Part shown: piece after piece, positions 1,369 through 22,810 of the stretch
Numbering within the stretch: the stretch's first letter is position 1
Layout: the number at the start of each line of letters is the position of its first letter
From: a virus
Lineage: Duplodnaviria; Heunggongvirae; Uroviricota; Caudoviricetes
Length of the DNA: 23,512 nt
IMG/VR virus record: IMGVR_UViG_2531839455_000001
Reading direction: 5' to 3' (one strand)
Notes under the pieces: generated by a model
What the model saw: only the letters and a program-made list of their open reading frames with translations
What the model was told of the DNA's origin: nothing
Databases searched by the model: none
Translations under genes and position numbers: made by a program

Positions 1369-1444
1369 GCCGATATAGCTCAGTTGGTAGAGCAGCGCAT
1401 TCGTAATGCGAAGGTCGTAGGTTCGACTCCTATTATCGGCACCA
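1369..1444 (+). tRNA. thrW: tRNA-Thr (anticodon CGU), 76 nt with encoded CCA
   Basis: GCCGATATAGCTCAGTTGGTAGAGCAGCGCATTCGTAATGCGAAGGTCGTAGGTTCGACTCCTATTATCGGCACCA: 7-bp acceptor stem, D loop AGTTGGTA, anticodon loop TTCGTAA (CGT), T loop TTCGACT. Confidence 0.9.
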
Positions 1445-1454
1445 TTAAAATCAA
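1399..1454. repeat. attL: 56-bp core shared with attR (thrW 3' 46 nt plus 10 nt downstream)
   Basis: ATTCGTAATGCGAAGGTCGTAGGTTCGACTCCTATTATCGGCACCATTAAAATCAA is repeated exactly at 19624-19679; integrase gene ends 5 bp away. Confidence 0.85.
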
Positions 1455-1458
1455 TAAG

Positions 1459-2622
1459 TTACACATCATTAGTACCTTCCTTATTTTTTGACTGGGACAA
1501 ATTTGGGACCGGTGGGTTCAGGATCGAGTCTATTTGCCGTGCGTGTTCGGTAAGGTGATTAGGTGCAAGGTGAGCATATCGACGAACCATTTCGATAGAC
1601 TCCCAGCCTCCCATTTCCTGTAACACTGACAACGGGACTCCGGCTTGAACCAGCCAACTTGCCCAGGTGTGTCTCAAGTCGTGAAATCTGAAATCATCAA
1701 TACCAGCCCGTCTCAGCGCCGCTTTCCAGGCTGTGTTTGCGTCATACCGCATCTTCCTTACTGTTGGCGCTTTCGTTCCGTCTGGTTTGGTACAGCTTTC
1801 CTTGTACACAAATACCCAACGGTGATGATTCCCGATTTGTTTTTTCAATACGCGACATGCAGTATCATTCAGCGCAACGCCAATTGCGCGGTTTGATTTA
1901 CTCTCTTCCGGGTTTATCCATGCCACCCGGCGCTGCATATCTATTTGTTGCCATTCAAGGTTGATGATGTTCGAGCGTCTTAAGCCTGTTGCCAGTGCAA
2001 ATTCAACAACAGACTTTAATGGCTCCGGACATTCATCAATCAGCCTTTGTGCTTCATGGGGCTCCAGCCAGCGGATCCGTTTATTCTTTGGTTGAGGCAC
2101 TTTAATAATTGGTGCCTTATCCAGCATTTTCCATTCACGCTCTGCGGCTCTTAGTAGGGCCTTTATAAATGAAAGATGCGTAGCCTTCGTTGCAACGGAC
2201 GCTGGTTTTGGCGTGTATTCTGGAACAGGTTTCCCTTTTTTTCTGCATGCTTCTGCCCTGAGTTTCCAGTTTTCCTCATGACGCCGGTTCGTCATTTTCT
2301 GCATTGCTGAATAAATTTTTGATTCAGTAATGTCTCTTAGTTGCATTCCTGCGAAATGTTGAAGCCAGAATCCGATCCGGCTTTTGTCATCGTCCAGTGA
2401 TTTTTTATGTGCTTTCTCTTCAAGCCACCTGACACACGCTTCCTCGAACGTTATATCAGGTATTTCACCAAGTTTGCTGACCCGCCATGCTTCAGCCTTT
2501 AGCTTGTCATGGAGTTCTGTCGCCTGCCTTTTGTCCTTTGTTCCAAGAGACTGTTTAAATCTTTTACCGTTCGGCAATGTGAAACTGGCGTACCATATTT
2601 CACCTCTGCGGAAGAGTGACAT
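1459..2622 (-). CDS. int: Tyrosine recombinase, P22-type phage integrase (387 aa)
   Basis: [25 protein letters not shown]...[16 protein letters not shown]...RRYAHL; C-terminal R..H..R..Y catalytic pattern; length and sequence match recalled P22 Int, whose attB is thrW. Confidence 0.9.
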
Positions 2623-2849
2623 TTTCTTTCCTCTGTTATGCCATCACCCGCGCTCACCTGGACAGTATGCAGCGGAGACTGAAGAGCCGCAATGCAGGCT
2701 TGTCGTGTTGTGAGGTAAGGAGATTTATTCTTAGTGGGATCTTTGCGTGTTGCCTGAAGACGCCCTGTGCGTATCCAGTTAATGGCAGTCGGTCTGGATA
2801 TCTTGAGAAAATGACAGGCCTCATCGAGTGTGAGGCTGTATGGCTCCAT
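2499..2849 (-). CDS. xis: Excisionase (116 aa); start taken at internal Met [29 protein letters not shown]
   Basis: Start ATG (2849-2847) overlaps the upstream stop as TAATG (translational coupling); winged-helix-like N-terminus; 3' end overlaps the int start by ~124 nt. The six-frame ORF extends to 2933 but upstream residues look non-native. Confidence 0.7.
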
Positions 2850-3154
2850 TATTTCACCTCTTGCTGTGACATTGTTGAAAAATGGATACCAGCTCGTTGC
2901 TGCCAGACGATCCAACCGAGAGTCATATCCCATGCCATGTATTCGTTATTGCCGTTTTTTGCTCTCCGACGATCTACTAAGTCACCGAAACGCTTTTCCA
3001 TGAATAATTCATAAGCTTCGCGTTCATCTGGTTCTACTTCCAGAGATAGGAGTGCGATTTCATAAGCACGGCGCTCAATATCGTCTCGCACGTCAAGGCT
3101 GCTGATACGCTCTTTAATTTCTTTAATCAGTTCTTTGTCGGTAAAAGTGGTCAT
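2849..3154 (-). CDS. yfdT: Small early prophage protein, YfdT-like (101 aa)
   Basis: ORF MTTFTDKELIKEIKERISSLDV...; coupled to neighbours by overlapping stop/start; size and position match recalled CPS-53 yfdT. Confidence 0.7.
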   Translation of the reverse strand: MTTFTDKELIKEIKERISSLDVRDDIERRAYEIALLSLEVEPDEREAYELFMEKRFGDLVDRRRAKNGNNEYMAWDMTLGWIVWQQRAGIHFSTMSQQEVK

Positions 3155-3516
3155 TATGCTCCAGCCTCCGGTGCTTTTGGCATTACTGCCCAGTGAGTGA
3201 TATTGACGTTTTCAAGGTCCCCGACCTGAAATGTCCACTGCCATTCTCCGGTTTCTTTTTGTCCCCAGGTGTACCAGAGAGAACGCCAGCCAATTAGCCA
3301 GCCTTCTCCGTTAGCATCGAATAACAAAACACTTTCATTTGCTGGTGGCAGTTCAGTTGACACTGGTATTACTTTGTTTTCCTGTGCTGCACATTTAGCT
3401 TCAAGCGCATCGAATTTACGCACCAGGTATTCAGCATCTGTTTCATTTACTTTCAGATCTCGCGGTACACATCTCCCACGAAGAAACCCTTCCATTTCGA
3501 AAACATTCATGCGCAT
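3154..3516 (-). CDS. yfdS: Early prophage protein, YfdS-like (120 aa)
   Basis: ORF MRMNVFEMEGFLRGRCVPRDLKVNE...; overlaps upstream and downstream genes (operon packing). Confidence 0.7.
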   Translation of the reverse strand: MRMNVFEMEGFLRGRCVPRDLKVNETDAEYLVRKFDALEAKCAAQENKVIPVSTELPPANESVLLFDANGEGWLIGWRSLWYTWGQKETGEWQWTFQVGDLENVNITHWAVMPKAPEAGA

Positions 3517-4043
3517 TTGCGTAACTCCGATAACTCGTTAAAGCGTTCCATAAACATCCCGTAGGCATGGCCCGGTGCCAGTGGAATCACGTTGAACATC
3601 TCTGTTGCCGGGATACCTTCCAGTACAGGCCAGAAAGAGCCATCATCAAGCCCGAGATCGCGGCGTTCGGTTGCCAGCATGATGAGATCGGCATATTTCA
3701 CGGGCGTACTCATAACTGGGGGTAACCCGTATTTCTCACGGATTACGGCGTCTATTTTTTCTTCCATTTGTTTATAGTCAGGAAGAAGGCGTTTCAGTGG
3801 TGCGGGAATGTCCTGGCAATACGCTTCTGTTGCATCATGCATTAACGCTTCAAAAGCAAATTCCTGCGGCACCAGCTGGCTGCAAAGAACCGCATGTTGG
3901 GCGACGCTGTAGAAGTGCGAAAGATGACCGGCAAAGCGACAGATATTTGAAAGGGAAACCGCGATATCGTTAATATCGATGTCGTCTTTATTTATCCTGT
4001 CATAATAAAAATGCTTCCCGGAAAAAGTTTTAATAAATGACAT
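3507..4043 (-). CDS. yfdR: HD-domain phosphohydrolase (5'-deoxynucleotidase YfdR-like), 178 aa
   Basis: HD motif in ...FEALMHDATEAYCQD...; start chosen at MSFIKTFSGKHFYY (ATG 4043) with GGAG 7 nt upstream; ORF track start at 4070 is probably 9 codons too long. Confidence 0.8.
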   Translation of the reverse strand: MSFIKTFSGKHFYYDRINKDDIDINDIAVSLSNICRFAGHLSHFYSVAQHAVLCSQLVPQEFAFEALMHDATEAYCQDIPAPLKRLLPDYKQMEEKIDAVIREKYGLPPVMSTPVKYADLIMLATERRDLGLDDGSFWPVLEGIPATEMFNVIPLAPGHAYGMFMERFNELSELRKCA

Positions 4044-8533: not shown

Positions 8534-9475
8534 ATGAGCACTAAATTAACCGGCTATGTATGGGATGGTTGCGCTGCATCAGGCATGAAGTTATCCAGCG
8601 TGGCAATTATGGCCCGCCTGGCTGATTTCAGTAATGACGAAGGTGTGTGCTGGCCATCAATTGAAACCATTGCCCGTCAGATTGGCGCGGGGATGAGTAC
8701 CGTCAGAACGGCTATCGCACGGCTGGAAGCAGAAGGCTGGTTAACGCGTAAGGCGCGTCGCCAGGGTAACCGCAATGCGTCGAATGTTTATCAGCTTAAC
8801 GTTGCGAAGCTTCAGGCAGCGGCATTTTCTCAACTGTCAGATTCTGACCCGTCAAAATCTGACGCATCAAAATCTGACCCGTCAAAATTTGATGCGTCGA
8901 AATCTGGCAAAAAAGCGGGTTTTCACCCGTCAGAATCTGGCGGGGATCCGTCAGTAAAATCAAAACATGATCCGTCAGATAAAAAACCTTCTCGTCCGGA
9001 CGCTTCGCAACCGGACACGCAGACGGCTGAACAGGATTTTTTAACTCGCCATCCTGATGCGGTTGTATTCAGCCCTAAAAAGCGCCAGTGGGGGACGCAG
9101 GATGATTTGACCTGCGCACAGTGGCTCTGGAAAAAAATCATCGCCCTGTACGAGCAGGCTGCCGAATGTGACGGCGAGGTGGTTCGTCCCAAAGAACCGA
9201 ACTGGACAGCCTGGGCAAACGAAATTCGCCTGATGTGTGTGCAGGATGGTCGTACTCACAAACAAATCTGCGAGATGTACAGCCGCGTCAGCCGCGATCC
9301 GTTCTGGTGCCGTAACGTGCTCAGCCCGTCGAAGCTGCGGGAAAAATGGGATGAGCTTTCCCTGCGCTTATCGCCGTCCGTAAGCACGTACACCGAAAAA
9401 CGCGAAGACCCGTACTTCAAATCCAGTTACGACAACGTGGACTACAGCCAGATCCCGGCAGGATTCAGGGGGTGA
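8534..9475 (+). CDS. Lambda O-like replication initiator (N-terminal winged-helix), 313 aa, iterons embedded
   Basis: N-terminus ...DEGVCWPSIETIARQIGAGMSTVRTAIARLEAEGWL...; central repeat-encoded segment DPSKSDASKSDPSKFDASKS coincides with DNA iterons. Confidence 0.7.
   Translation: MSTKLTGYVWDGCAASGMKLSSVAIMARLADFSNDEGVCWPSIETIARQIGAGMSTVRTAIARLEAEGWLTRKARRQGNRNASNVYQLNVAKLQAAAFSQLSDSDPSKSDASKSDPSKFDASKSGKKAGFHPSESGGDPSVKSKHDPSDKKPSRPDASQPDTQTAEQDFLTRHPDAVVFSPKKRQWGTQDDLTCAQWLWKKIIALYEQAAECDGEVVRPKEPNWTAWANEIRLMCVQDGRTHKQICEMYSRVSRDPFWCRNVLSPSKLREKWDELSLRLSPSVSTYTEKREDPYFKSSYDNVDYSQIPAGFRG
8828..8990. repeat. Iteron array (putative prophage ori) inside replication gene
   Basis: Tandem ~15-bp units TCTGACCCGTCAAAA / TCTGACGCATCAAAA / TCTGACCCGTCAAAA / TTTGATGCGTCGAAA and degenerate copies (..CCGTCAGAATCT.., ..TCCGTCAGTAAAATC.., ..TCCGTCAGATAAAAAA). 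Confidence 0.6.
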
Positions 9476-9490
9476 TCATGAGTCTGTTAA

Positions 9491-10009
9491 ATGACGTTCA
9501 GAAATTCATTGAAGCCCAAAGATATTGTTGGTGTATGGACCGTATGTCACGGGCATATTGCACCGCCAGATATTCCGGCAGGCTTCGTGGCTGTTTTCAA
9601 CAGTGATGAGGCATCGTGGCATCTCGTTGAAGACCATCGAGGTAAAACGGTTTATGACGTGGCATCAGGGGACGCGTTATTTATTTCTGAACTCGGTCCG
9701 TTACCGGAAAATGTTACTTGGTTGTCACCGGAAGGGGAATATCAGAAGTGGAACGGCACAGCCTGGGTGAAGGATACGGAAGCAGAAAAACTGTTCCGGA
9801 TCCGGGAGGCGGAAGAAACAAAAAACAGCCTGATGCAGGTAGCCAGTGAGCATATTGCGCCGCTTCAGGATGCTGCAGATCTGGAAATCGCAACGGAGGA
9901 AGAAACCTCGTTGCTTGAAGCCTGGAAGAAGTATCGGGTGTTGCTGAATCGTGTTGATACATCAACTGCACCTGATATTGAGTGGCCTGCAATCCCTGTT
10001 ATGGAATAA
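9491..10009 (+). pseudogene. Tail fibre assembly (Tfa) gene remnant: conserved C-terminal portion only, fused to an unrelated short N-terminus
   Basis: ...[35 protein letters not shown]...[16 protein letters not shown]...[22 protein letters not shown] matches the recalled Tfa C-terminal domain; canonical Tfa N-terminus absent; no tail fibre gene upstream. Confidence 0.65.
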
Positions 10010-10562
10010 TCGTTCCTGTTGTAGCCACAGTCACGTCATATACAAGAACTTGCCGGCCTAAGAAGAGTTCGTGCTGATTTTGAATATAAAATCAGCATTA
10101 CAACGCCCGAAATACCCAGGCTAAAAAATTTCTTAGGACATTATCAGCTGGCGATACATAGATGGACTGGATACTAGACCGATAGAGGCGCTGTATGCGT
10201 CATCTTGTCGTGATGCTGGCGAAGTTGTGCGAACGAAGTATTAACTTTTGCAGCCTAGCTGATTCAATTGATGCAGCCACACTAACGGGGCGCTTTTTTC
10301 CATGTAATGGTTGTAGAAGATGTTACTGAGAGGGATTAAATGAAACAGCAAATACGTCATATGTTAGAGCATGTTGTGGTTGACTGTTGAACACACCTAT
10401 CACAAATGTGCTTCTTTAGAAAGAGAATTTACATAAGCAAATTGCAACATGTTTTTTTTCTGAGTAAATAGTATGATTAACAATGCTGACTACCATTTTC
10501 TTACATGGCGAACCTAATTAAGAATTAAACGCGAGTAGATTACCCGCTTTAGAGGAGGATTT

Positions 10563-11504
10563 ATGTCCGGTTACTGTTTTTACTCTCAGGATGCATTAGC
10601 CTTAGCCCAGGCAGCTGGTGTTGATGTAATAATAAACGAGTATGCTGAGAAGAATAAAAAACAGACATATGTTCTTTGTCGTCCCCTGTCAAATGAGGAT
10701 GTAAAGTATGATTATGACCAAGCGATAGCGGTATTTTCGGCTGGTATAAAACCTTTTTTTATGAATTTAGGAGATGACGTCGAACTCTTTGAAGAGTATC
10801 AAGAGGATTTTCTAGAGGATGTATCATATTTAGCAGAGAAATTTAAGTATCGTAGTAAAATTGGAAGAAAAAAGACATGGCAAGATTTATTTGAAGTACT
10901 TTCTGTTGGTGATGCCGATTTCAGTAAGCTGGAGGTTGAAACTAAAGAAAGTAGAATAATTGATTTGCTAATCTCGCTTATTGTGGGAAGTATTAACGAT
11001 ACTTCAAGAATTAATCTTGAAGCAAGTAATTTATTAGATACAATAAAATCAAAGATTATTTTATTTGATACTGATCAAACAAAATTCGTTTTCCAAAGTG
11101 GAATTGGAAAAAAGACTGTAATACAAGGCTTGGCTGGTTCGGGGAAAACAGAACTCCTTTTACATAAATTAAAAGAGGTTTATTTAAGGAACCCTGATGC
11201 TAAAATTGCATTTACTTGTTTTAATAAAATACTTGCATCTACAATGAGAACTAGGATACCAGAGTTTTTTGATTTTATGCGAGTGGAAAAGCAAATTGAA
11301 TGGGGTACGAAACTTTTTTGTTTTAACTCTTGGGGTTTGACTAAAGATCCCTTTTCTGGGATGTATAGATATATATGTCATTATTACGAAATTCCATTCG
11401 GTGGTTTTGGCAACGGAGATTTCGATGCTCTTTGCAAAAAAGCCATTTTGGATATAAAAAAAGTGGGCGGTCTGATGAAAAAGCTCTCGATTATGTGTTT
11501 ATAG
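10563..11504 (+). CDS. UvrD-like SF1 helicase, N-terminal segment (unknown ~190-aa N-domain + Walker A); reading frame ends shortly after an A7 run
   Basis: AGAGGAGG RBS before ATG; Walker A GLAGSGKTELLLHK (nt ~11127-11168); AT-rich; frame continues sensibly in the -1 frame after 11456-11462. Confidence 0.7.
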   Translation: MSGYCFYSQDALALAQAAGVDVIINEYAEKNKKQTYVLCRPLSNEDVKYDYDQAIAVFSAGIKPFFMNLGDDVELFEEYQEDFLEDVSYLAEKFKYRSKIGRKKTWQDLFEVLSVGDADFSKLEVETKESRIIDLLISLIVGSINDTSRINLEASNLLDTIKSKIILFDTDQTKFVFQSGIGKKTVIQGLAGSGKTELLLHKLKEVYLRNPDAKIAFTCFNKILASTMRTRIPEFFDFMRVEKQIEWGTKLFCFNSWGLTKDPFSGMYRYICHYYEIPFGGFGNGDFDALCKKAILDIKKVGGLMKKLSIMCL

Positions 11505-12550
11505 ATGAAAGCCAAGATTTTCCACAAAGCTTCATTGAACTATGTGAAATGGTTACATCTAAAAAACTATATGTAGCGGGCGATGTATTTCAAAATATAT
11601 TTATGCCGATTAATGATAACGTGAATCGAGCAGATATAGTTCTTAAAAAATGTTATCGCACAGATCCAAAGAACTTAATGTTTTCTCATGCACTAGGAAT
11701 GGGACTTTATGAGAAACCGGTGCTTCGGTGGTTGAAAGAGACTGAGTGGGATTCTTGTGGATATAAATATAATAAGGTTGGGGATAGAGTACATTTATCT
11801 AGGGATCCGTTAAGACGCTTTGAAGATATTCCAAAAAATCATAAAAGTACGGCTATTCATTTACTAAAAGAAGTGGATAATGGTCCTGATAAAATAGTTG
11901 AAATTATTAAGGATATTCAGGCCCGCAATCCTACTTTAGAGCAAGGAGATATAGCAGTCATTTTCCTTGATGCTAGTGGTTATATTTATGATTATATTCA
12001 ATCACTAAAATCAAAAGTCAAGTTGCAGCTTGGTTGGGACTCTAATATTTCACATGAGACAAAATCAAAACAAGATGGGAAGCTTTTTATTTCCAATATA
12101 AACAATGCAAAAGGGCTTGAGTTCCCATTTGTTATTTGTTTTGCTATGAAATTAGTAAAGAGAGCAAACTTTCGAAATGCTCTGTATACTATGATGGCTA
12201 GATCTTTTTTAGAAAGCCATTTAGTTTTAAATAATGATAATGAAAATCCGGCAATGCCTACTATTATTGAAGGTTTAGATTTTCTCAATAAAAATGATTA
12301 TATGGATGTAAGACTTCCGTCGGATGAGGAAATAAACAATCAAAAGGATTATATTATTTTGGATGAGTCTACCTCTATTAATCAAATGGTTAGAAAATAT
12401 TGTGAAGATAAAAAATCCACACCTCGCTTAATAGCAAAAGTTACTCACACTGTAGAAACTATAATAGCAGGTCTTGATGATGATGATGTCGATGATGACT
12501 ATATAAATAGATTGATTGAAATAGAATATATAAGGAATAAAAAGTTATGA
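11375..12550 (+). CDS. UvrD-like SF1 helicase, C-terminal segment (helicase motifs II-VI); meaningful coding begins near 11462
   Basis: Motifs DYVFIDESQDF (II), YVAGDVFQNIF (III), CYRT (IV), AKGLEFPFVICF (VI); first ~29 codons of the ORF are an out-of-frame overlap with the N-terminal segment. Confidence 0.7.
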   Translation: MSLLRNSIRWFWQRRFRCSLQKSHFGYKKSGRSDEKALDYVFIDESQDFPQSFIELCEMVTSKKLYVAGDVFQNIFMPINDNVNRADIVLKKCYRTDPKNLMFSHALGMGLYEKPVLRWLKETEWDSCGYKYNKVGDRVHLSRDPLRRFEDIPKNHKSTAIHLLKEVDNGPDKIVEIIKDIQARNPTLEQGDIAVIFLDASGYIYDYIQSLKSKVKLQLGWDSNISHETKSKQDGKLFISNINNAKGLEFPFVICFAMKLVKRANFRNALYTMMARSFLESHLVLNNDNENPAMPTIIEGLDFLNKNDYMDVRLPSDEEINNQKDYIILDESTSINQMVRKYCEDKKSTPRLIAKVTHTVETIIAGLDDDDVDDDYINRLIEIEYIRNKKL

Positions 12551-13185
12551 GTTTTTATTTCTTTAATAATGTACCTACAGTGTACCTTGAAAAGTTCTGC
12601 GCTGTAAGAGATGCATTTTCCAATCTGGAAAATCTTCTTATTGCTGCGGAAATTATAAATACATGTCATGACTGTTGGAATAAAGAAACAAATGATTTCG
12701 ATTTGCTAATAAGTACTGGTACTCATAAGCGAATTCTGGTGAGGAAACCGGATGGTTTTTTTTCTATGAATTTACCATTTCAAGTAATTGAGTATGAAAG
12801 CAATATCTGTTTTAACTATGATGCCTATGGGCTTCCTGTTAATGCAGAGTTTATTTCTCGATGCAGGAATGTAATAAATACTTGCAGTAATGGCGCTTTT
12901 TCTCAGGAGGCAATTGCTCTTGAATTGTGTGATAACTTTGATCGAGATATTCAAAGTGCTATAAATTATGCTGATGCAATTTGTTCATTGTTGTTAGTTG
13001 ATCATGGGTATTTTAGGTTTGATGATGATCCTAAAAATGCGAAGGATAAAGTGCATCCAAGATATCACTTTGATTTTTTCTTCAATAATTCTACTAATGT
13101 AAAGATAGGCTGTAATACTCGTTTGGATGAATCATTTTTTTTAGAACTATTTGATGTAAATAAAGACCGCCCCTATCTGGCTTGA
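12547..13185 (+). CDS. Hypothetical 212-aa protein, translationally coupled partner of the helicase
   Basis: ATG overlaps helicase stop (ATGA); AT-rich, Cys/His/Asp-rich (LVDHGYFRFDDDPKNAKDKVHPRYHFDF); strong hairpin directly after stop. Confidence 0.65.
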   Translation: MSFYFFNNVPTVYLEKFCAVRDAFSNLENLLIAAEIINTCHDCWNKETNDFDLLISTGTHKRILVRKPDGFFSMNLPFQVIEYESNICFNYDAYGLPVNAEFISRCRNVINTCSNGAFSQEAIALELCDNFDRDIQSAINYADAICSLLLVDHGYFRFDDDPKNAKDKVHPRYHFDFFFNNSTNVKIGCNTRLDESFFLELFDVNKDRPYLA

Positions 13186-14534: not shown

Positions 14535-16106
14535 TTACTGAGAGCTCAGATCAACTTTCCAGGGCAACAGATCGCGTACCCGGTTTGCCGGCCAGTCCTG
14601 GATATGTTCAATGACGTAGCGCAGCCACTTTTCTGGCTCCACATTGTTCAGACGGCATGTGCCGATCAGCGAGTACAACACCGCCGCATGTTCACCACCG
14701 CTGTCGGAACCCGCGAACATCCACTTTTTCCGGCCTACGGCCACTCCCCGTAAGGCGTTCTCTGCGATGTTGTTGTCGATTTCCACCCAGCCATTACTGC
14801 AGTACACGTTCAGTGCATCCCACTGTTTCAGCAGGTATGCGAACGCTTTTGCCGTATCTGAGTGACGCGACAGTGTTTTCATCTGTTGCTGTATCCAGTC
14901 ATACAGTGACTGCATCAGTGGCGCGGCTCTGGTTTTTCTTGCCGCCAGACGCTGTTCTGCTGAACAGCCCCGGACCTCTGCCTCGATGGCATACAGTTCA
15001 CCGATACGCTGCAGGGCTTCCGTGGTGATGTCGGTGGGCGCTCTTGCATGCACATCGTGGATTTTTCTCCGGGCATGAGCCATACACGCGGCTTCCGTTA
15101 TTCTGCCGGATTCGTATAACGCCCGGTAACCACCGTAAGCATCGGCCTGAAGCACACCGCTGTAACCGGCCAGGTGATTTTGTGGATGGATACCTTTCCG
15201 GTCCGGACTGTACGCGAACCAGACCGCCGGGGGCATCTGTGAACCGGCGTTACGGTCATCACGGACGTAGACCCACAGCCGGGCTGTCCGGGTTTTACCG
15301 CTGCCCGGCTCCTGGACCGGGACGGGGATATCATCAGCATGGACTTTACCGGGCATCAGCACATACTGGCGCAGGACGTCATACAGCGGCTCCAGTAGTT
15401 CAGCAACGGCACCTGTCCAGCGCCCCAGTGTGGCACGGCTCAGCTCCACACCCTGACGGCGGTATATCTCTGACTGGCGGTATAACGGCAGATGGTCTGC
15501 ATATTTTCCGGTGACGACATGGGCCAGGAGCCCCGCTCCGGCATAACTGCGTGCAATGGGTTTTGAAGGTACTGGTGCCTGCACGATATGGTCGCACCGA
15601 CAACAGGCCAGTTTCGGACGTTGTGTTTCGATAACCTTAAAGGCGCTGCTGATAAGCTCCAGTTGCTCTGACACATCACATCCCAGAGAACTGAGTTCAC
15701 CACCACAGGCAGGACAGCATTCCTCTTCCGGCCGGATAACCCGGGTTTCACGGGGAAGTGAGGCCGGTAACGGTTTACGGGCTGAAGACTGGCGCAGGGC
15801 GGATGGCAGTACCGGGTCATATTGCTCACCCAGCGTTTCCGCCATTTCTTCCTGAAGTGCGCTGATTCGCTCCTGTGCTTCCTGTATCTGCCGTTCGGTT
15901 TTTGCACGAAGTTTTTCTGAGCTTTTACCGAACTGCATACGTTGCAGTTTCGCAACCAGCGCCTTCAGCCGGTTGATTTCGGAAGCATAAGCCGCCACCC
16001 GCTGTGAGAGCAGGCGGTTGTATTCAGCCATCTGGCGTATGGTGTCCTGTTGCGTCTGCAACAGTGCCCGCAGGCGGGCGTTCTCATGAGCAAGTGAGGT
16101 GTCCAT
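14535..16106 (-). CDS. tnpC: IS66-family transposase TnpC (523 aa)
   Basis: [20 protein letters not shown]... with leucine-zipper-like N-terminus, CxxC...CxxC zinc-finger and DDE-type core, matching recalled IS66 Orf3. Confidence 0.9.
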
Positions 16107-16125
16107 ATCCTCACTTTACAACGGG

Positions 16126-16473
16126 TTATATGCGGATTCCAGCGCGTTCCGTTCGTTTCGGGTGCTTCCAGTTGATACCTTCAAGAAGCATGGATAACTG
16201 AGCCGGAGTAAGGTGCACCTTGCCGTCACGGGTGACTGGCCAGACGAAGCGGCCCCGCTCCAGGCGTTTGGTGAAGAGGCACAGTCCGTCACTGTCAGCC
16301 CACAACACTTTTATCTGGTCACCCCGGCGTCCGCGGAAGATGAACAGGTGTCCGGAGAACGGGTCATCCTTCAGGACGTTCTGAACTTTTGATGCCAGGC
16401 CGTTAAAGCCATTTCGCATATCGGTGATACCTGCAACCAGCCAGATACGCGAACCTGCAGGGAGAGATATCAT
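16126..16473 (-). CDS. tnpB: IS66-family TnpB (Orf2), 115 aa
   Basis: MISLPAGSRIWLVAGITDMRNGFNGLASKVQ...GHLFIFRGRRGDQIKVLWAD..., the recalled conserved IS66 Orf2 signature. Confidence 0.85.
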   Translation of the reverse strand: MISLPAGSRIWLVAGITDMRNGFNGLASKVQNVLKDDPFSGHLFIFRGRRGDQIKVLWADSDGLCLFTKRLERGRFVWPVTRDGKVHLTPAQLSMLLEGINWKHPKRTERAGIRI

Positions 16474-16679
16474 CAGTGGCTGCTCCCTTTTATTTCGCGG
16501 ATAAGTGTCTGTAATAACGCCGGCGTCAGTTTACCTTTAAGCCTGAGAGTTCCGGCCGGCAGAACCAGCTCACAACACAGACTGTCGGACGGTGTATTTA
16601 TCTGCTCTGGTTCCTGTGCGGGGGCCGGGATTTTATTATCCGGCTCCGGCGTTAACGTCACGGGAAGCAGTGCCGGCAT
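16473..16679 (-). CDS. IS66-internal small ORF (68 aa), stop overlaps tnpB start; possibly part of the accessory protein
   Basis: ATGA overlap with tnpB; Pro-rich; no in-frame ATG upstream; uncertain. Confidence 0.3.
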   Translation of the reverse strand: MPALLPVTLTPEPDNKIPAPAQEPEQINTPSDSLCCELVLPAGTLRLKGKLTPALLQTLIREIKGSSH

Positions 16680-16809
16680 ATTTTTTCCGGAAGGCAGCAG
16701 GCCACCTTTCCGGTATTGATGGTCGCCAGTTGAAGAGCAGGTTATCGTTGATTCCGTTTTCCCGGGGCGATCTGCGCCACACAGGCTCCGGGCTGCAGTG
16801 ACTGCTCCA

Positions 16810-17154
16810 CTAAGGCGATTTTAAACTCATAAGGGAAGTTGGGCCGCCGGGGGACGTTTTTTTACCACGGGGGCGTTCGGATATAACGGTGCTTTCAGGA
16901 CGTACGACTGGTACCGTGGAAAATTGTCCGTAAAGGCAGGCATCAAGTTCCTGCTCCGACATGCCTGCGGGCAAAGGCCACGAAAGGCCAGCTCTCCGAA
17001 AGCGCACGAACATACTACAAACTGTTGATTTTGGTACACCCAGGCGACGCCCGGCCACAACCCGGGGTAAATGTTCTTCAAAGTGAAGACGTAAAGCTTC
17101 AGTGATCCAGGTCCGGTGTTTCATACGATAGTGTCCATTAAAAATGATGGACAT
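16810..17154 (-). CDS. tnpA: IS66-family accessory protein TnpA (Orf1), HTH-containing, ~104-114 aa
   Basis: First ORF inside the left IR, same strand as tnpB/tnpC; HTH-like ...LGVPKSTVCSMFVRFRRAGLSWPLP...; alternative start MKHRTWITE at 17124. Confidence 0.5.
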   Translation of the reverse strand: MSIIFNGHYRMKHRTWITEALRLHFEEHLPRVVAGRRLGVPKSTVCSMFVRFRRAGLSWPLPAGMSEQELDACLYGQFSTVPVVRPESTVISERPRGKKTSPGGPTSLMSLKSP

Positions 17155-17207
17155 TATTTTTGTAGAGCCGGAGGAAACAGACCAGACGGTTTAAATGAGC
17201 CGGTTAC

Positions 17208-17267
17208 ATCTGTTGTGTCTTCATCACCAGTACTTAGTATCTGAATGATTTCTTGCAGTTGGTTCAT
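17208..17267 (-). pseudogene. Abi-like gene, 5' portion (first 18-20 codons, MNQLQEIIQILSTGDEDT...), separated from its 3' portion by the IS66 element
   Basis: Removing the IS and one TSD copy joins this segment in frame with 14504-13636 to give a continuous 306-codon ORF. Confidence 0.55.
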
Positions 17268-17281
17268 ATGTCTTATCCCAT

Positions 17282-17305
17282 AAAAAAGCCCGCATAAGCG
17301 GGCTT
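17282..17305 (-). terminator. Rho-independent terminator (minus strand) just upstream of the Abi-like start
   Basis: Minus strand AAGCCCGC-TTAT-GCGGGCTT followed by T6. Confidence 0.5.
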
Positions 17306-17434
17306 CTATGTCACTAAAGAGCCGCGGCTCCTTTGCGTATCCTTTTTTGTCTCCTCACCGTCTGGTCGGTGTCCTGCTGAGACTGCTAACTTCCTGTTTT
17401 TGTTGGTGTTGTCCTTACACTGTCCAATCATGAT

Positions 17435-17462
17435 TGGTGGAGCTGGCGGGAGTTGAACCCGC
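17435..17462 (-). other. ssrA (tmRNA) 3'-end fragment, att-site-like footprint
   Basis: Minus strand reads GCGGGTTCAACTCCCGCCAGCTCCACCA, identical to the recalled 3' terminus of E. coli tmRNA; no matching 5' half, so not a complete RNA gene. Confidence 0.6.
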
Positions 17463-17849
17463 TGACACGTCGTATGCAAGAACTTGCTGCGGCTGGATGG
17501 TGGACTTTCGATAGTGCGAGTATTGAATGATTTCCATCTATTACAGATTTTACCGTATTTCGGCATGAATGAAACTGAATATCCTCCCACCGACCCTCCA
17601 TGACTTTACACCACTGTCTCTGGGGCTGCTATGTGCCAAGAGCGGACGTTACAATCATCAGCCTATCCATTAACTAATGGGAATAGGTCACGATAGTTGT
17701 TGAATGAGCCCTTGTATAGTTTCAAAAATTGCTTTGATTTAATACATTGATACTGTTAGATTCTGAAGGATCCTATCAGTTTTAACACAATAGGTTTGTA
17801 TAAAAACATCCTGCAGCGTTTCAAATATTTTTCATGAGGTATTTATAAA

Positions 17850-18956
17850 ATGATTACTAGTGGGTATTTAATAGGACAGATAATTGACGACCTATCAAAT
17901 ATAGCACAGCAAGCAAAAGTCAGAAACAAACTTGGACATACTGATTTATCTGTGTTTGCTGAGAATTTTTTCAAGGATATACTAAACGAGACACTGGAAC
18001 TATCCTTAATAAACACTAACATAACAAGAGCTAACGAGCCTGGTATAGATCTTGCTGATATGGCAAAAAAAACAGCATTCCAGGTCACAACTGACAAAAC
18101 AAGTAAAAAAGTAATAAACACTCTTGAAAAAATAACATCTGAACAAAGAAATAATTACCGCCACTTCAATATTTTGATAATAGGTGATAAACAAGATAAG
18201 TATGAGGCTGTAACGAAAGCTTTAGCTAACAGAAGTGATACCGAAGAATCTTATGATGAAAGTGAAGAAGAACAAAAAAGTAAGATTCATAAAGATATAG
18301 TATTTGATCCAAACGAAAACATTATGGATTTGACTGACTTATTCCGTAAAATAATTGGGTTAGATTTGGTGAATATCCAAAAAATCCATAGCATCATCCA
18401 AAAAGAAGGCGCGAAAGTCAAAATTGAGCTTCAGGTCCCTGATGAGAATGGTGAGTTTCAAACGAATGGTTATGATCTTTGGGAATCACGTCCAAAAAAA
18501 CAACTTAGCGATGGGGTCATTTTCAGTAACTGGGAAGCTGCACAAGGCGGAGCAGTAGCCACACAAGAAGCAATTGATAAAACTAAGAAAGACATTGAGG
18601 AATTAGCGAGTCGCCTTTATTCCTTGCCACGAATAACACGCGAGTTTCTAGCAATGCTTTATGAGCTGGCTAACTATAAACGTGAACGATATGATGAGCA
18701 TCCAAGTATTTTCTATAGTTTTGTTAAAAAAACTTACCCCAATGCAGACGAAGAGATAAAATTACTGCTATCTCATGAGTTAATCGATATGGACTCTGAA
18801 CAAAAAGACACCGAAAGGTTTGTGGATACCGAGATTGGGTTATGTTTTTCTCTTCCATACAAGTCTTACCTAAATTTAGGGTTCTATAACTTTGTAAATG
18901 AAAATAAAATTTTATTTCGTGACGTAATTGGAAAGGTGGATTTTTCATGCTTCTAA
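17850..18956 (+). CDS. Hypothetical AT-rich 368-aa protein (orphan cargo gene next to attR; possible abortive-infection/defence protein)
   Basis: Clean ORF with GAGGT RBS 9 nt upstream; Lys/Glu/Asn-rich; no recognisable phage structural or housekeeping motifs by eye. Confidence 0.7.
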   Translation: MITSGYLIGQIIDDLSNIAQQAKVRNKLGHTDLSVFAENFFKDILNETLELSLINTNITRANEPGIDLADMAKKTAFQVTTDKTSKKVINTLEKITSEQRNNYRHFNILIIGDKQDKYEAVTKALANRSDTEESYDESEEEQKSKIHKDIVFDPNENIMDLTDLFRKIIGLDLVNIQKIHSIIQKEGAKVKIELQVPDENGEFQTNGYDLWESRPKKQLSDGVIFSNWEAAQGGAVATQEAIDKTKKDIEELASRLYSLPRITREFLAMLYELANYKRERYDEHPSIFYSFVKKTYPNADEEIKLLLSHELIDMDSEQKDTERFVDTEIGLCFSLPYKSYLNLGFYNFVNENKILFRDVIGKVDFSCF

Positions 18957-19623
18957 ATCCAAAATGACATCCCACTATATTTCATTGTTCTAACTCCTTT
19001 TGACTGCATAATAAGTCATCGGTTATGTTAGCCGACTGACTTTATGTTATTTACATTTAAATGACACAGTTGGAATATAATAATCAGCTGAAACAATTAC
19101 ACATAATTTCAAAATATTCTTTCATGTAACACTTCACCAGTAGAATTATCTCCGCTACCACATAATAAGCTTAAATCATATTAGAGTGTCTCTTGTTCTG
19201 GAGGCGAAAAATATATTTAATAAAGCTACAGCCTCCCAATTAGCATTGACCTAGTCACATGATGTCGCCAGTGGGCAAGATGAAGGGCCTTAATTGGTCT
19301 GTTGTTTTACTGTTCAGGTAAGCCTGTTGCCAGAGATAAGTTTGTTTTTTTATGAAAGTCAGCTCTTCGCTCATAACAGACATTCACTACAGTTATGGTA
19401 GAAGGTATGCATGCTGGGTGGGGAAAGTATGAAGGAAAAGAAGGCTGCTGTGTCGTTTGACATCACTGCAATCTTCTTATTGGTTATGCGGGTCGTAGTG
19501 GGACAAAACTGAGACACATAAGGCCTAGCAATGGCTTGCAAGGCTTTACATGTTTTGATGTGGTGGGACTTGTGAGCGCAGTGTTGATGGGGTAATGCTT
19601 TGAATTAGAAGCGGATTCTTATA

Positions 19624-19679
19624 ATTCGTAATGCGAAGGTCGTAGGTTCGACTCCTATTATCGGCACCATTAAAATCAA
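19624..19679. repeat. attR: exact 56-bp copy of thrW 3' end + 10 nt (partial tRNA-Thr, not a functional gene)
   Basis: Identical to 1399-1454; lacks the tRNA 5' half. Confidence 0.85.
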
Positions 19680-19950
19680 ATTGTTACGTAAGATCTTATC
19701 ATTCTCCCACCAAAAAATTATCTTAATGTAACAGCTGGTGTAAGTAAATTCTATCAACGAAGATCAATCTTATCTACTGACCAAAAAGGCCTGATAGGGC
19801 TTCGCTCACTATACATCCTTGGCTGCAGGTTTAGTTGTACACCACTCCTAAATTTAATGTGTTGGCAATGTGTTCAATAAAGCTCGAACAAATTAGCTCA
19901 TTATGATCGGTTAATACTTCAACTTCTGGTTGCATGATTGTTTGTCCGTA

Positions 19951-22342: not shown

Positions 22343-22810
22343 TCAGTCGTTGCTGCAGTCTCCGAGAGTGGACAGAACTTTCTCAGTGTTCTTCCGGTCC
22401 GCAGTGAAGGTCCCTGCTTTGTGGTCATTGACGTAGACGTCGAACTGCCCGGCCTCAGAGATATTGCTGATGAAGTCAAACCAGGCGTTATCGCCGTTAC
22501 GCCAGCCCAGGCTGGACGGAATAATGTACTGCTGGTGATCCATCACTACGGTGATAGTAGTGTCGTCATCGTGCGAACTGACCATCTTGTCATCGGCAAG
22601 GGTAAGAAAGACTGAATGCTGATAGAAACCATTCTGGTCCGGGTTCCCTGTGCAGTTGATGGTAAACGTCTTTCCGCTGGCTTCGGTCACGCTGTATTCC
22701 GTATTGCCCTGACCGTAACCCTGCTGCCAGAACCCCGGGATAGCAGAGGCATTAAAGCTCGCGAGCAGTACACCCGCCAGCATAAACCGACTTAGTGAAA
22801 GTATTGTCAT
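22343..22810 (-). CDS. ykfB: Secreted/periplasmic small protein (YkfB-like), 155 aa
   Basis: N-terminal signal-peptide-like segment [23 protein letters not shown]; position in CP4-6-like block. Confidence 0.65.

Follow-up and report, generated by a model that had tools for sequence, protein, structure and literature searches.

What is an exact copy of the 3' end of the tmRNA gene (ssrA) doing inside a prophage that is integrated at thrW? The question is raised by a stretch of 23,512 nucleotides (hereafter the window; IMG/VR record IMGVR_UViG_2531839455_000001, Caudoviricetes), the minus strand of which reads GCGGGTTCAACTCCCGCCAGCTCCACCA at positions 17462..17435 and is there identical, at 28 of 28 positions, to the terminal 28 nt of E. 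coli K-12 ssrA (L003 1429-1456; K-12 2755928-2755955).

A tmRNA 3' end without a tmRNA gene

The 28-mer (17435..17462, minus strand) comprises T-stem, T-loop, T-stem, acceptor 3' strand and CCA, the parts of an ssrA-type attachment (att) core. Identity to ssrA begins at the first base of the T-stem; the base before it is A in the window (...GTCA) and C in ssrA (...GGAC). Searched as a pattern with up to three mismatches, the 28-mer is matched once in the window and in none of 100 dinucleotide-preserving shuffles. Over the window ARAGORN identifies thrW at 1369-1444 alone and no tmRNA gene, and Rfam at gathering thresholds returns just the thrW tRNA and IS009, with no tmRNA family. Under permissive Rfam settings RF00023 and the permuted RF04321 reach 16.3 and 19.7 bits, compared with a gathering score of 47, and only the T-arm and the acceptor 3' strand are aligned. 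When folded, the acceptor 3' strand is left without a partner, and the tRNA-like domain that is formed by paired 5' and 3' ends is thus absent at the 28-mer. Absent upstream of it are also the tag reading frame and the pseudoknots, their place being taken by DNA that normally follows tfa in lambdoid phages and is unrelated to the body of ssrA. A reading of this DNA made from the sequence only had described a perfect 28-bp copy of the ssrA 3' end with no tmRNA 5' half, and the 28/28 match and the ARAGORN and Rfam searches bear this out. The same searches rule out that the 28-mer belongs to a complete or permuted tmRNA, to a tRNA-like gene, the possibility which that reading had set against itself, or to any Rfam family.

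The surrounding element is one prophage at thrW

The window represents the proA-thrW locus, and those of its stretches that were compared are 99.9-100% identical to the ETEC-type strain 504239. At the left, the 3' half of thrW and its flank form attL (1399..1462, plus strand; ARAGORN and repeat comparison), and at the right a direct repeat of the thrW 3' half, 95% identical over 64 nt, forms attR (19624..19687, plus strand). The arm adjoining attR (about 19499-19687) matches, at 94-96% identity, what is annotated as the attP/int region in SfI, SfII and SfIV, and a CP4-6-like island lies beyond attR. The sole integrase in the window is a tyrosine integrase of thrW type (1459..2622, minus strand), which is 27% identical to the Int of the ssrA-type phage LLS discussed below. 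The sequence-only reading had proposed a search for a second att-like repeat or an integrase fragment; this found neither in the window, nor is there a second copy of the core or any ssrA gene. Taken together, the thrW repeats bracketing the region, the Sf-type attP arm and the single integrase indicate one prophage and not two, and the 28-mer with its conserved flanks is situated about 2 kb inside the right end of this prophage and not at an element boundary.

Between the thrW repeats are found early genes of yfdP/Q/R type, a tfa remnant, an invertase remnant, a helicase pair, a split AbiTii gene, the conserved segment with the 28-mer and a gene with a SMEK domain. The lambda-like tfa remnant (9557-10006, plus strand) is 97% identical to residues 45-194 of lambda Tfa and is followed by the Fin/Pin invertase remnant (10105-10299, plus strand). 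The cargo on the tfa side consists of a DEAD/DEAH helicase of the STM2767 family with its STM2766-family partner (10563..13185, plus strand) and of AbiTii, of which the first 20 codons, starting at the ATG at 17267, occupy 17207..17267 on the minus strand. After codon 20 the gene is split by ISCro1 (IS66 family, with tnpA, tnpB and tnpC; 14535..17206, approximate ends, minus strand), and its remainder lies to the left of this element. The SMEK-domain gene (17850..18956, plus strand) constitutes the cargo on the attR side, and the ssrA fragment thus lies, as had been noted from the sequence, between divergent genes, AbiTii on the minus and SMEK on the plus strand. The same AbiTii-to-SMEK module is present without the insertion sequence in about six other genomes, for example HCP5S3_I4.

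Two further features of the prophage deserve mention. The Rfam match to IS009 (9768-9966; 220.9 bits, full length) falls wholly within the coding sequence of the tfa remnant (ORF 9491-10009), and probably represents conserved tfa coding DNA and not a small RNA gene. At 8822-8944, within a 313-aa helix-turn-helix ORF (8534-9475), about six tandem units of some 15 nt (TCAAAATCTGACCCG-like) are found, which look like the iterons of a replication origin of lambda O type, arrayed within its initiator gene.

Similarity to the ssrA locus continues through a terminator

The similarity to ssrA loci does not end with the 28-mer. It extends for about 155 bp past it, to 17277, at 91-96% identity, a continuation which the sequence-only reading had overlooked. 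This downstream arm (17277..17434, minus strand) comes next to the ssrA core both in phage LLS and at the ssrA loci of chromosomes; among 5,426 complete E. coli genomes, 5,417 show a match that starts where the 28-mer starts and runs through the arm, mostly at the true ssrA locus. The arm opens with CCAATCATGATTGG (17437-17424, overlapping the CCA), a perfect 14-bp palindrome which occurs after true ssrA as well and could be a candidate protein-binding site or be linked to 3' processing of tmRNA. It closes with a Rho-independent terminator (minus strand 17305-17282; -18.9 kcal/mol, z = -4.8, followed by a U-run), 130 nt downstream of the T-arm hairpin, and the terminator reported earlier behind the fragment is thereby confirmed. 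Comparison of its stem (window 17286-17303) with the copies in loci L245 and L004 reveals a paired change, GCCCGC...GCGGGC versus GCCCAC...GTGGGC, by which the hairpin is kept. Such a change is consistent with selection for termination after ssrA.

The origin of the arm at the chromosomal locus itself allows two readings. In K-12 MG1655 (L245, 2777972-2783304), past the right end of CP4-57, psaA is followed by the arm, by ypjA, which encodes an autotransporter, and by pinH, an invertase pseudogene. Lambdoid prophages have this order at their tail-fibre end, which suggests that the DNA after K-12 ssrA is what remains of an old lambdoid element. At chromosomal ssrA the arm may be either native or left over from such a prophage.

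On the other side of the terminator, the start codon of AbiTii (17267) is only 14 nt beyond the U-run. This leaves no room for a promoter of its own, and AbiTii would have to be expressed by transcription that arrives from upstream through read-through or antitermination. Were the phage integrated at ssrA, a gene of the same direction in the place of AbiTii would come immediately behind the ssrA terminator.

The DNA upstream of the core is the tail of a lambdoid late operon

Upstream, the core abuts a conserved non-coding block (17459..17654, minus strand), normally found after tfa in lambdoid phages, that is 81% identical to lambda 24162-24356, between ea31 and ea47 in the b region, and 93% identical to phi458. 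This block of about 200 bp is present in 5,383 of the 5,426 genomes, with a median of three copies per genome. It lacks three-base periodicity, and indels of 1, 2 and 4 nt are frequent, as expected of non-coding DNA. Its most conserved part is the 3' terminal 100 nt or so, ending in an imperfect palindrome of about 34 nt, CCGCAGCACGTTCTTGCATACGACGTGTCTGCGG, which terminates in GCGG and so shares 4 nt with the start of the core. A tfa gene of the other strand has its stop codon about 11 nt short of this palindrome in 35 of 122 viral-contig loci, and the block is thus the usual non-coding tail of the late operon. An ssrA-like core follows the block in 30 of the 122 loci; elsewhere it is followed by cargo such as lambda ea47.

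Other identities of the block were considered and rejected. A truncated invertase abuts the block in phi458, a hint that it could be a decayed serine-invertase gene; tblastn gives nothing past residue 67, and the absent codon periodicity and the frequent indels also speak against such a relic. It does not qualify as a structured RNA, since an invariant inverted repeat is all that is seen, with no covariation, no Rfam family and no sigma-70-like promoter. Nor is it the integrase-side arm of the attP of LLS or of the related prophage in strain 1506D011, as those arms differ in sequence. The sharp 3' edge of the block, finally, might suggest a hot junction of site-specific recombination, and is largely explained by tfa alleles and cassettes: many of the varied continuations at this edge are different tfa alleles whose ends lie about 11 nt away from the palindrome, and cassettes make up the remainder.

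A composite segment spread among prophages

Upstream block, core and downstream arm form a non-coding composite of about 378 bp (17277-17654), in which the core-plus-arm is joined to the post-tfa block precisely at the first base of ssrA identity. The joint is identical in all 26 unique composites (...CTGCGG|(G/T)TTCAAC), and GCGG is all that the T-stem shares with the block. From the uniformity of these sequences one old illegitimate join, which would later have spread, fits the data. At a coverage of at least 80%, 338 of the 5,426 complete E. coli genomes contain the composite, and the prophages that carry it are integrated at thrW, icd and dusA. Fin/Pin and tfa genes are located 2-6 kb away on the arm side in ten of ten IMG/VR composites, and the whole composite was not found in the sequenced free phages of the collection. 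A literature search found no description of the composite, of the lambda ea31-ea47 spacer block or of the palindrome-bounded cassettes treated below.

The ssrA part of the composite is no better conserved than its surroundings, with a mean identity of 87% for the core and 87-90% for the flanks. The exact 23 nt from T-loop to CCA are kept in 13 of the 26 unique composites, the other 13 having substitutions or deletions of 1-5 nt. The least conserved part is the 3' strand of the T-stem with the acceptor (0.84). Best conserved are the T-loop (0.97) and CCAATCATGATTGG (0.98), the latter also in composites with a decayed ssrA core. This hints at some constraint, although their conservation is partly an ascertainment effect as the scan patterns fixed those bases.

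Related prophages keep the composite and differ in their cargo

The intact thrW prophage of NS-NP030 carries the integrase, helix-turn-helix and phage-protein accessions of strain 504239, and its composite, about 96% identical to that of the window, is internal to the prophage. Here the composite is flanked by retron Ec48 on one side and by BRO-N...GIY-YIG cargo on the other, and this latter cargo is protein-identical to that beside true ssrA in 1506D011. The element had been a candidate for a prophage within a prophage, which is ruled out as it is a single thrW prophage. In EC14, two hypothetical genes, the composite and a type II restriction-modification pair follow each other, with a copy of the thrW attR about 2 kb off. 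Related thrW prophages therefore retain the composite while the cargo genes differ on both sides of it.

Changing defence-type genes also occupy the slots beside the upstream block in loci L247, L246, L007, L008 and L011. They include retron Ec48, type II restriction-modification, DUF3800, DUF4145, SMEK, AbiTii, the STM2767/2766 helicase pair and BRO-N/ImmA, and in addition a pair of a PtuAB-like AAA ATPase and an HNH protein (lambda ea59/ea31; the 'retron system HNH' pair).

Comparison with known attachment sites

The closest counterpart of the core and arm is found in the free lambdoid phage LLS (PQ299149), in which positions 26311-26493 are 92% identical to window 17277-17462 over 183 nt, terminator included, and where the depositors annotated a tmRNA pseudogene and attP. 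Two things led to the deduction of this attP: 29 bp that are identical to the 3' end of ssrA, and an integrase which shares 99.7% identity with the one of an ssrA-integrated prophage (PMC12315714). With the attL of an LLS-like prophage at ssrA, core and arm share 96% identity. Strain 1506D011 has a complete prophage of LLS type at ssrA, which starts with ssrA, core, arm, BRO-N/HTH/ImmA/GIY-YIG cargo, tfa and tail, and proceeds through early genes, int and AAA/RloB to a second core (GCGGA variant) and a P4-type integrase. As the fifth base of its cores is polymorphic, the crossover is placed within the 23 nt from T-loop to CCA. The window resembles LLS and the 1506D011 prophage in the ssrA 3'-end core, in the arm of about 155 bp with its terminator (92-96%), in the yfdP/Q/R type of early genes and in the position of core and arm beside cargo that adjoins invertase and tail-fibre genes. 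It differs in what lies on the other side of the core: in LLS the ssrA similarity amounts to about 39 nt and is followed by gene 31 and then the integrase, whereas in the window the post-tfa block sets in exactly where the 28-mer begins, and a cognate integrase is lacking. Of the constituents of a functional ssrA attP of LLS type, the window consequently has the core and the tail-side arm and lacks the integrase-side arm and the cognate integrase/excisionase. The proposal that the fragment stems from an ssrA-targeting element is upheld by these comparisons; the CP4-57-type source that had been named as an example is not, since the relatives are lambdoid and the arm that follows ssrA in CP4-57 is a different sequence from that of the window.

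Three other systems are instructive. At psaA in K-12, the right junction of CP4-57, a partial ssrA 3' end is likewise followed by the arm (about 93% identical, by eye). There, however, the ssrA part is 14 bp long, coincides with a real end of an element at ssrA and has its repeat counterpart in the intact ssrA gene, while the window copy is 28 bp long and stands without a partner inside a thrW prophage. Being internal to the thrW attL and attR, as it is in NS-NP030 and EC14, the latter does not have the character of an island end. Lambdoid prophages of STEC/EPEC are known to carry copies of chromosomal attB sites, with flanking host gene sequence, which are used by other phages, the sources being yecE, ykgJ/ecpE and ompW and ssrA not among them (Nakamura et al. 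2021, PMC8112680). The window shows the structural half of this arrangement, a copy of a chromosomal target inside a lambdoid prophage beside a variable cargo locus, but its ssrA copy consists of core and arm only and no occupied copy is found in 5,426 complete genomes. In the b region of lambda (ea59-ea31 / ea47), and at 'moron' loci, the order int, attP, cargo, post-tfa block, cargo, tfa is as in the window, with the difference that there is no ssrA core and that the ea47 cassette begins where the core of the window begins.

Origin of the composite and alternative explanations

We consider it most probable, at roughly three chances in four, that the 28-mer is the core of an attachment site of an ssrA-type lambdoid phage, which has lost its integrase-side arm together with the integrase and is now an orphan relic within one thrW prophage. 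By analogy with the way tRNA- and tmRNA-targeting integrases work, the copy carried by an ssrA-integrating phage would replace the 3' end of ssrA and supply a new terminator, and the terminator of the arm would originally have replaced that of ssrA. A lambdoid lineage at ssrA may then have swapped its integrase and att module, with core and tail-side arm left in place. The integrase-side arm would have been lost in the join to the post-tfa block, and without that arm the site would be unable to act as attP. The composite of the window would accordingly be inactive both as an RNA and as the att site of this prophage, and would persist as passenger DNA. It would still provide about 380 bp of shared homology between two variable slots for defence-type cargo, and thereby a possible crossover region for cargo exchange; lambda is documented to recombine with prophage remnants where the two share short stretches of diverged homology (PMC3945230). 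Counting against a relic is the core of the window itself, which is perfect (28/28) and without decay, a state that fits recent acquisition and retained function alike.

The sequence-only reading had gone further and suggested that the cargo to the right of the tfa remnant may come from a separate ssrA island of CP4-57 type, which would make the element a mosaic and the 28-mer the mark of an old island end. The junction of core and arm does resemble one of attR type, as at K-12 psaA, and the helicase pair is named after locus tags of Salmonella LT2. Yet the thrW repeats enclose the whole region, the intact relative in NS-NP030 holds the composite within one prophage, the DNA upstream of the core is standard lambdoid post-tfa DNA and not that of an island, and besides the differing CP4-57 arm there is the lack of a second integrase or repeat. 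Nor do the helicases behave as cargo of ssrA islands: a tmRNA gene is found within 10 kb in none of 28 related loci across bacteria, and none of these loci has a copy of the core or block. We therefore abandon the two-element mosaic, and the derivation of the cargo from an ssrA-associated island with it, as improbable. More improbable still is a functional RNA, tRNA-like or a small RNA derived from tmRNA, that would be made from the ORF-less region and ended by the terminator. A T-arm hairpin can indeed form, a strong terminator lies 130 nt downstream and the region is poor in ORFs; against this stand the unpaired acceptor 3' strand and the absence of an Rfam family at threshold, of a sigma-70-like promoter in 17150-17950 and of compensatory changes outside the invariant palindrome. 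In half of the copies the ssrA part has moreover decayed by indels, and the terminator is explained as the replacement terminator of ssrA.

More serious, though in our judgement still unlikely, is that the core is a live secondary target, an attB within a prophage that offers an extra site to P4/CP4-57-type islands or LLS-like phages. As a target of bacterial type needs the core only, intact copies could in principle still be hit by ssrA-specific integrases. The 28/28 identity to ssrA and the functional attB copies that lambdoid prophages carry beside cargo loci (PMC8112680) speak for this, as does the only candidate for an occupied composite core, contig L094 (IMGVR_UViG_2698536560_000011), where at 2040-3673 the post-tfa block and an ssrA core of the GCGGT variant are joined to the arm of a P4-type integrase. 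In many E. coli genomes the attL at true ssrA matches this integrase arm at 99.8% identity. L094, however, is a lone 11-kb, draft-derived contig with a single copy of the core, and may represent an island that has entered an orphan core, the distal junction (attR) of a prophage at ssrA or an assembly error at the repeat. A junction of block, core and island arm, of either the L094 or the K-12 CP4-57 type, occurs in none of the 5,426 complete genomes at a coverage of at least 80%, the former candidate NS-NP030 is a single thrW prophage, and half of the unique cores would yield a defective tmRNA end. Use of intact composite cores by ssrA-specific integrases thus appears to be rare at best. Given L094, some composite cores may nevertheless be used, or the post-tfa block may be the true arm of some ssrA phages.

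Palindromes and a possible array of cassettes

A side finding concerns the palindrome at the end of the upstream block. A 48-nt profile of it, searched over 277 loci (3.0 Mb), gives 204 matches; at least two copies are present in 53 loci, the 57 adjacent pairs are all in direct orientation and their spacings are discrete. The first copies were chosen by the search patterns; the second copies and the orientation were not. A degenerate direct copy is located in the window just past the stop codon of the tfa remnant (10028..10053, minus strand), and together with the copy at the core (17459-17505, minus strand) it brackets the invertase remnant, the helicase, STM2766, AbiTii, the arm and the core. 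In lambda (NC_001416) copies at 22573-22613, just past tfa, and at 24162-24209 bracket ea47, L247 has copies at 9143-9189, 11818-11865 and 12851-12885, and the three palindromes of NS-NP030 delimit [core, arm, BRO-N...hypothetical gene] and [GIY-YIG]. Covariation lends modest support to a hairpin, with 90.8% of cells paired, changes on both sides in five cells (found in none of 500 shuffles) and a score of 0.090 versus 0.074. Runs of T follow some copies and not others, and the CCGCAGCACGTTCTTGCATACGACGTGTCTGCGG palindrome may be a terminator or insulator or else a homology anchor for cassette exchange. A reading that joins these observations is conceivable, although we think it doubtful: the region from tfa to the integrase would be an array of cassettes, each bounded by direct copies of the hairpin-capable palindrome as dedicated exchange sites, and the ssrA core and arm the leading edge of a cassette, the intact ones being live landing sites for ssrA-specific islands and phages. 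Equally doubtful is the accompanying supposition that exchange in such an array would proceed by short-homology or site-directed recombination, lambda included.

Significance for prophage annotation and evolution

An exact tmRNA 3' end within a prophage should not be taken as an island boundary or a pseudo-tmRNA, and island-finding tools that use tRNA and tmRNA fragments could mis-split prophages in the 338 or more E. coli genomes with the composite. Orphan copies of att sites in prophages are already known as a kind, and the ssrA composite is a further example. Were intact cores still targets of recombination, they would offer a route for the nesting of islands in prophages or for chromosomal rearrangements between thrW and ssrA. 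The composite and its bounding palindromes constitute a fixed frame around two variable slots, which hold AbiTii/helicase, SMEK, retron Ec48, restriction-modification and PtuAB-like ea59/ea31 genes, and this frame could anchor a systematic mining of defence genes. For the evolution of lambdoid phages, the composite implies that close relatives have changed their integration modules (ssrA versus thrW, icd and dusA) while half of the old att site was kept, and the half that is retained serves as a dated marker of the module exchange.
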